Shown: positions 63,281-63,294 of the stretch, in pieces | How the letters are laid out: the number at the start of each line of letters is the position of its first letter | Position numbering within the stretch: the first letter of the stretch is position 1 | Assembly: GCF_001677475.2 (NCBI RefSeq) | Contig: NZ_CP015229.1 | DNA: 64,000 nt | Strand: one strand, 5' to 3' | Source: Escherichia coli | Lineage (GTDB): Bacteria; Pseudomonadota; Gammaproteobacteria; Enterobacterales; Enterobacteriaceae | Position numbers and translations under genes: made by a program | The notes under the pieces: generated by a model | What the model was told of the DNA's origin: nothing | Databases searched by the model: none | The model's input: the letters and a program-made list of their open reading frames with translations, nothing else

Positions 63281-63294
63281 TTGATTTAGCGCAA
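63281..63294. promoter_or_regulatory. Candidate FNR binding site upstream of hcp
   Basis: ttgatttagcgcaa (TTGAT-N4-gCAA, near the FNR consensus TTGAT-N4-ATCAA) about 100 bp upstream of the hcp start codon. Confidence 0.4.

Follow-up and report, generated by a model that had tools for sequence, protein, structure and literature searches.

The DNA analysed here (hereafter the window, 64,000 nucleotides in length) carries on its minus strand, near its end, the operon hcp-hcr. The first gene, hcp (61532-63184, minus strand), encodes the hybrid cluster protein, annotated as hydroxylamine reductase and 550 aa long, and is recognised both by the NCBIfam model NF003658 (814 bits) and in the RefSeq annotation; the second, hcr (60552-61520, minus strand), encodes the 322-aa NADH oxidoreductase partner of Hcp (NCBIfam NF007964, 640 bits) and is collinear with K-12 b0872. 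Upstream, on the same strand, lies the 3' end of lysO (ybjE), whose stop codon TAA occupies 63330-63328, and the 143 bp between lysO and hcp house the motif studied here. The whole window is collinear with positions 852,947-914,630 of E. coli K-12, with an identity of 95.6-97.4%; for the interval 62900-63700 the best identity among 5,424 complete E. coli genomes is 96.9%, and the aligned hcp-lysO stretch is 91% identical to E. albertii. Judged by sequence, the window probably represents an Escherichia lineage on the margin of E. coli, not a typical strain. Between ybjP and ybjQ we also found a 2.5-kb segment (51354-53901) with no K-12 counterpart, containing one 600-aa ORF (51950-53752, plus strand) annotated as a pentapeptide repeat-containing protein; the segment is found in 1,128 of 5,426 complete E. 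coli genomes. About 150 bp of K-12 between rlmC and artJ (899,665-899,818) are missing at approximately 46685-46702 of the window.

A first-pass annotation of this DNA had pointed to an FNR-like half-palindrome upstream of hcp-hcr. The 14-base motif that it named, ttgatttagcgcaa, is present exactly at 63281-63294 on the plus strand; the hcp-sense (minus) strand there gives TTGCGCTAAATCAA. The motif is centred at 63287.5, and 103.5 nt separate this centre from the hcp ATG downstream. Eight of the ten specified positions of TTGAT-N4-ATCAA are matched: the promoter-proximal half (ATCAA) is perfect and the promoter-distal half (TTGCG) agrees at three of five positions, so "half-palindrome" is a fair description. 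The downstream genes hcp and hcr are confirmed by NCBIfam equivalog models and by collinearity with K-12.

The same 14-mer is an established FNR site in K-12. Table S6 of a genome-scale FNR study gives TTGATTTAGCGCAA as a predicted site for hcp, at 913134, with a PatSer score of 13.11 and ln p of -11.6, at an FNR ChIP-seq peak that carries a "+" in each of the five dataset columns of the peak table (PMC3688515); TTGATTTAGCGCAA is also the plus-strand reading of the window site, and the two 14-mers are identical. In that study hcp-hcr is classed as directly FNR-activated from a site at -72.5, for which Filenko et al. 2005 is cited (PMC3688515 Table 1). The mapped start of E. coli hcp is the T in AAACATG[T]ATATT (PMC1274295 Figure S1), and hcp is induced anaerobically with nitrite or nitrate (PMC1274295). 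From the FNR site to the ATG, K-12 and the window align without gaps, and homology with the mapped K-12 start places the predicted hcp-hcr transcription start (+1) at 63215 on the minus strand, giving a 5' UTR of 31 nt. With the start so transferred, the centre of the FNR site falls at -72.5 (63287.5 - 63215 = 72.5), in agreement with the published value (PMC3688515); both statements of -72.5 in the literature probably go back to one primary mapping, that of Filenko 2005. Seven substitutions separate K-12 from the window between the FNR site and the ATG, six of them between about -20 and -28 and the seventh at -41. They are located at 63235-63243 and 63256 (minus strand), and the spacer cluster reads GTCTTGAAGAG versus CGCGTTAAGCG. 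None of the seven touches the FNR, NarL-type or NsrR motifs or the -10-region block, and their distribution amounts to a small within-genus footprint.

At -72.5, with the start assigned by homology, the site has class I-type spacing (near -61.5, -71.5, -82.5 or -92.5) and lies well outside the class II position (-41.5 ± 4, overlapping the -35 region). The first-pass annotation had proposed a comparison with the mapped hcp start and held that a start incompatible with class II spacing would count against the site. The comparison itself stands, since the start, at 63215, is indeed incompatible with class II spacing; its use as a refutation does not, because -72.5 is a class I-type position and class II incompatibility is therefore no argument against function. 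Among FNR-activated promoters with a known start, 19 of 23 are class II (PMC3688515), and hcp belongs to the minority with distal sites. Class II spacing is thus not a valid refutation for FNR sites, and as a test it would wrongly discard a true one here.

The preponderance of class II promoters does lend some support to a different arrangement, implied by the test of the first-pass annotation, in which FNR would act from a class II position (centre near -41.5) on a second promoter starting near 63246, and a weak TTTTAT hexamer is found at 63252-63247. Several observations weigh against such a promoter, however. The mapped start gives -72.5; the -10 element expected for a start near 63246 reads AACCCC, whereas use of TTTTAT would put FNR near -47.5; a scan of 63100-63450 contains no promoter-like pair; and the spacing conserved across species is the spacing to the downstream promoter and the NsrR operator. 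We thus regard a second, class II promoter as highly unlikely and place the motif in the class I-type arrangement upstream of 63215.

Several further elements accompany the FNR site in this arrangement. An NsrR 11-1-11 operator, AACATGTATATTAAATATAACTT (63199-63221, minus strand), has its centre at +6 and extends over the transcription start, a placement expected to give repression relieved by nitric oxide. The operator is highly conserved in a MAFFT alignment of 95 Enterobacterales; the same 23-mer (on the opposite strand, AAGTTATATTTAATATACATGTT) is listed for the hcp peak in NsrR ChIP-seq of E. coli CFT073 (PMC5320621), and an NsrR site at hcp was predicted earlier (PMC1274295). Between the FNR site and the core promoter there is a candidate extra NsrR-like 11-bp half-site, AAGTTGCATGA (63261-63271, minus strand; centre about -51), which resembles the single NsrR half-site AAGATGCATTT and whose CFT073 version, AAGTTGCATTA, is listed as the third of the NsrR motifs predicted within the ChIP-seq peak at hcp (PMC5320621). 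The block that holds this half-site is partly conserved in the alignment of 95 Enterobacterales, and some E. coli strains carry a T variant of AAGTTGCATGA that is nearer to the consensus. An A-tract, AAAAA (63257-63261, minus strand), spans -46 to -42, where a proximal UP-element subsite would lie; its conservation among the 95 Enterobacterales is 0.8-0.9, and from its position it is a possible docking site for the C-terminal domain of the RNA polymerase alpha subunit (alpha-CTD).

Upstream of the FNR site we found a candidate NarL/NarP-type 7-2-7 pair of inverted heptamers, TACCTCT-CT-GGCGGTA (63312-63327, minus strand; centre -104.5). With two mismatches to TACYYMTNNAKRRGTA, it conforms by sequence to the NarL/NarP 7-2-7 pattern (TACYYMT-N2-AKRRGTA); sites with two mismatches number 6 in the window against 2.6 expected, and about 0.006 would be expected in the intergenic region. 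Its centre is 32 bp upstream of the FNR centre, that is, three helical turns, which places the two motifs on the same face of the helix. The NarL/NarP position published for hcp (Filenko 2005, Chismon 2010) we take to be -104.5. For hcp, candidate upstream NarP sites have been reported, as has induction that depends on NarL/NarP (PMC1274295). As for the core promoter, a sigma-70 promoter scan of 63100-63450 returned no consensus-like promoter, and an intrinsic terminator scan of the same interval called none. The empty promoter scan fits an activator-dependent promoter, and we accordingly assign no specific -10 or -35 hexamers; at -15 to -10 the window has TTAACC where the aligned Yersinia sequence has TATGCT and that of Salmonella ATAACC, which is an observation on the alignment only. 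In the FNR study sigma-70 gave no ChIP peak at hcp, and a dependence on sigma-E is cited there (PMC3688515), a remark that was not found in the main text of the paper that it cites.

Another possibility is that the motif serves not FNR but another regulator of the CRP/FNR family, either CRP itself or a nitric-oxide sensor of the HcpR or DNR type. FNR half-sites have the core TTGAT or ATCAA and CRP sites the core TGTGA, and the core of the motif is of the former kind. A sensor of the second kind has some precedent, as hcp is elsewhere under HcpR, DNR or NorR2, some of them binding palindromes similar to that of FNR (PMC1274295). In E. coli, however, FNR itself binds the site in vivo and expression depends on it (PMC3688515), and enterobacterial hcp has been assigned to FNR together with NsrR and NarP (PMC1274295). 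We hold recognition by another family member to be extremely unlikely, and FNR to be the factor that binds at -72.5.

A match to the FNR consensus is by itself a poor guide. Sites with at most two mismatches number 47 in the 64-kb window versus 35.0 ± 5.8 in shuffled sequences, so a bare consensus match is neither significant nor discriminating. The PWM scan proposed by the first-pass annotation is more informative and came out in favour of the site. We built a symmetric PWM from 62 other predicted FNR sites at E. coli K-12 ChIP-seq peaks (PMC3688515 Table S6), the hcp site being excluded from the training set. The hcp site scores 13.3 bits and ranks third among 63,987 window positions; simulated 64-kb sequences contain 1.23 sites that score at least as high, which corresponds to about 0.0025 expected by chance in the lysO-hcp intergenic region. 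The motif is thus a better-than-background match by the PWM, but not by mismatch count alone. The top score of the window, 16.2 bits, belongs to TTGATGTGCGTCAA at 10611-10624, which is identical to the ChIP-bound FNR site of the ybiY/fsaA intergenic region in K-12 (PMC3688515 Table S6); that the best-scoring position is a known site indicates that the matrix behaves sensibly. Two other matches, ATGATTGATATCAA at 5772-5785 (13.6 bits) and TTGACACAAATCAC at 45320-45333 (13.1 bits), score about as high as the hcp site. By collinearity with K-12 they appear to lie inside the coding regions of ybiU and ybjO, respectively, and from that placement they are probably non-functional. The PWM score alone does not identify an FNR site.

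Conservation was followed in a species footprint, for which one genome per species was scanned for the conserved hcp start TGTGTGCAATGTGAACA; this gave at least 120 loci, and 105 of the loci listed were kept, having the ATG as expected and at least 200 nt of upstream sequence. Among these, an FNR site with at most two mismatches is centred 100-130 nt upstream of the hcp ATG in 104 of the 105 species, against a background of 0.0004 per position for such sites in other parts of the same upstream regions. The proximal half ATCAA is invariant across the species listed. The distal half is more varied: among the loci listed it reads TTGCG in 74 of the 105 species, among them Enterobacteriaceae, Yersinia, Pectobacterium and Dickeya, and TTGAT in 13, all of them Aeromonas, the only genus there with the perfect palindrome; TTAAT, TTGCT, TTGAG and TTGTT also occur. 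Over the same footprint, the distance from the FNR centre to the equivalent of the E. coli start, inside the NsrR operator, ranges from 71.5 to 78.5 with a mode of 72.5. At closer range, the columns of the 14-mer in the MAFFT alignment of 95 Enterobacterales agree with the window base at a level of 0.8-0.9, those of the promoter spacer at 0.2-0.5. Within the species, the 50-mer around the FNR site is identical in 3,949 of 5,421 complete E. coli genomes, and in two sampled E. coli variants the changes are outside the 14-mer only. The site is therefore both located in a promoter and conserved among relatives. That its likeness to the FNR consensus is accidental and without regulatory meaning might be argued from how common sites within two mismatches of TTGATNNNNATCAA are (47 against 35 ± 5.8, or about 0.08 expected per 143 bp), yet the PWM rank of 3 in 63,987, the site in the same place in 104 of the 105 species listed with ATCAA invariant, the conservation of 0.8-0.9 while adjacent spacer positions vary, and the binding of the identical sequence by FNR in K-12 ChIP (PMC3688515) leave this reading next to no probability, conservation and published occupancy having effectively refuted it.

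We are thus highly confident that the motif is the operator through which the oxygen sensor FNR acts on the hcp-hcr promoter, of class I type, with a boost from NarL/NarP and a check by NsrR. The original proposal, an FNR activator site of the anaerobically induced hcp-hcr, is borne out by the identical K-12 14-mer at an FNR ChIP-seq peak, by the classification of the operon as directly FNR-activated and by the phylogenetic footprint. The FNR site and its occupancy in vivo, activation of the operon by FNR, placement at -72.5 and the operator of NsrR are shown by identity with the published K-12 and CFT073 data and by conservation, and the K-12 start, occupancy and regulation are presumed to carry over, by homology, to a lineage that is about 96-97% identical. 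We infer the alpha-CTD contact, the role of the A-tract and the assignment of the 7-2-7 motif to NarL/NarP. Under the model that we favour, in the absence of oxygen a [4Fe-4S] FNR dimer would bind TTGCGCTAAATCAA at -72.5, further upstream than the class II position by three helical turns, and would recruit RNA polymerase in a class I manner, most likely by a contact of FNR activating region 1 with the alpha-CTD, itself perhaps docked on the A-rich stretch conserved at about -46 to -42. Having no consensus-like -35/-10 pair, the core promoter would depend on this activator. With nitrate or nitrite present, NarL/NarP would boost activation by FNR from the 7-2-7 motif (-104.5), which faces the same side of the helix, while NsrR, bound across the start site (+6), would block initiation until nitric oxide inactivates NsrR by destroying its cluster. 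The site would in this way restrict Hcp-Hcr, an anaerobic nitric-oxide detoxification system, to oxygen-free conditions.

The FNR site of hcp is already known; it is real, strongly conserved and ordinary. The closest counterpart is of course the hcp-hcr (ybjW/nipAB) promoter of K-12, with FNR at -72.5, where the 14-mer, the 103.5 nt to the ATG and the distance to the start are identical, and where the flanking lysO and hcp-hcr, the NsrR operator and the NarL-type 7-2-7 motif are also as in the window. The difference lies in the host, here about 3-4% diverged, and in the seven substitutions, which all fall between the FNR site and the -10 region. The full FNR, NarL/NarP and NsrR promoter is thus kept unchanged in the Escherichia lineage studied, which matters little beyond annotation. 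Among other E. coli promoters, nirB and nrfA (both class II, with FNR at -41.5) resemble hcp in combining anaerobiosis through FNR with nitrate and nitrite through NarL/NarP, and nrfA is, like hcp, also under NsrR. In nirB and nrfA, however, FNR at -41.5 overlaps the -35 region and NarL/NarP binds at about -70, whereas at hcp FNR sits at -72.5 and the NarL/NarP-type site lies three further turns upstream. Distal FNR sites, upstream of the -35 region by at least one helical turn, are shared with ydjX (-60.5) and ackA-pta (-74.5) (PMC3688515 Table 1), and in all three promoters activation presumably proceeds through alpha-CTD contact. What sets hcp apart from ydjX and ackA-pta is a NarL/NarP-type site further upstream and an NsrR operator that covers the start.

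The distal half of the site raises a separate question. As TTGCG is common to 74 of the 105 species while the nearby spacer varies freely, we considered selection on this half. That TTGCG is itself selected, not merely a decayed TTGAT, seems to us rather unlikely; the candidate causes are tuning as a weak site and overlap with a second factor. For the first, TTGCG may make a deliberately weak FNR site, such that hcp is conditional on co-activation by NarL/NarP; for the second, this half may overlap the target of another factor.

The intergenic region also holds a conserved hairpin, located just after the lysO stop and 4 nt upstream of the FNR site, TGGCGGTAG-ATCC-CTGCCGCCA (63298-63319, minus strand), with a predicted energy of -16.5 kcal/mol. 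The left arm of the hairpin is also the right heptamer of the NarL-type 7-2-7 motif, and given this shared segment 3'-end formation of the lysO transcript and activation of hcp might be coupled, which we likewise hold to be rather unlikely. Across 46 distinct enterobacterial sequences the stem is preserved around a freely varying loop, and one base pair is U.G in 27 of them, U-A in 17 and C-G in 2; a preserved stem, a variable loop and alternative pairs fit an RNA structure on the lysO/hcp-sense strand. The hairpin at 63298-63319 has no T-run and was not called in the terminator scan; it probably forms the 3' end of the lysO transcript. At the equivalent place, Aeromonas has a canonical terminator hairpin followed by a T-run.
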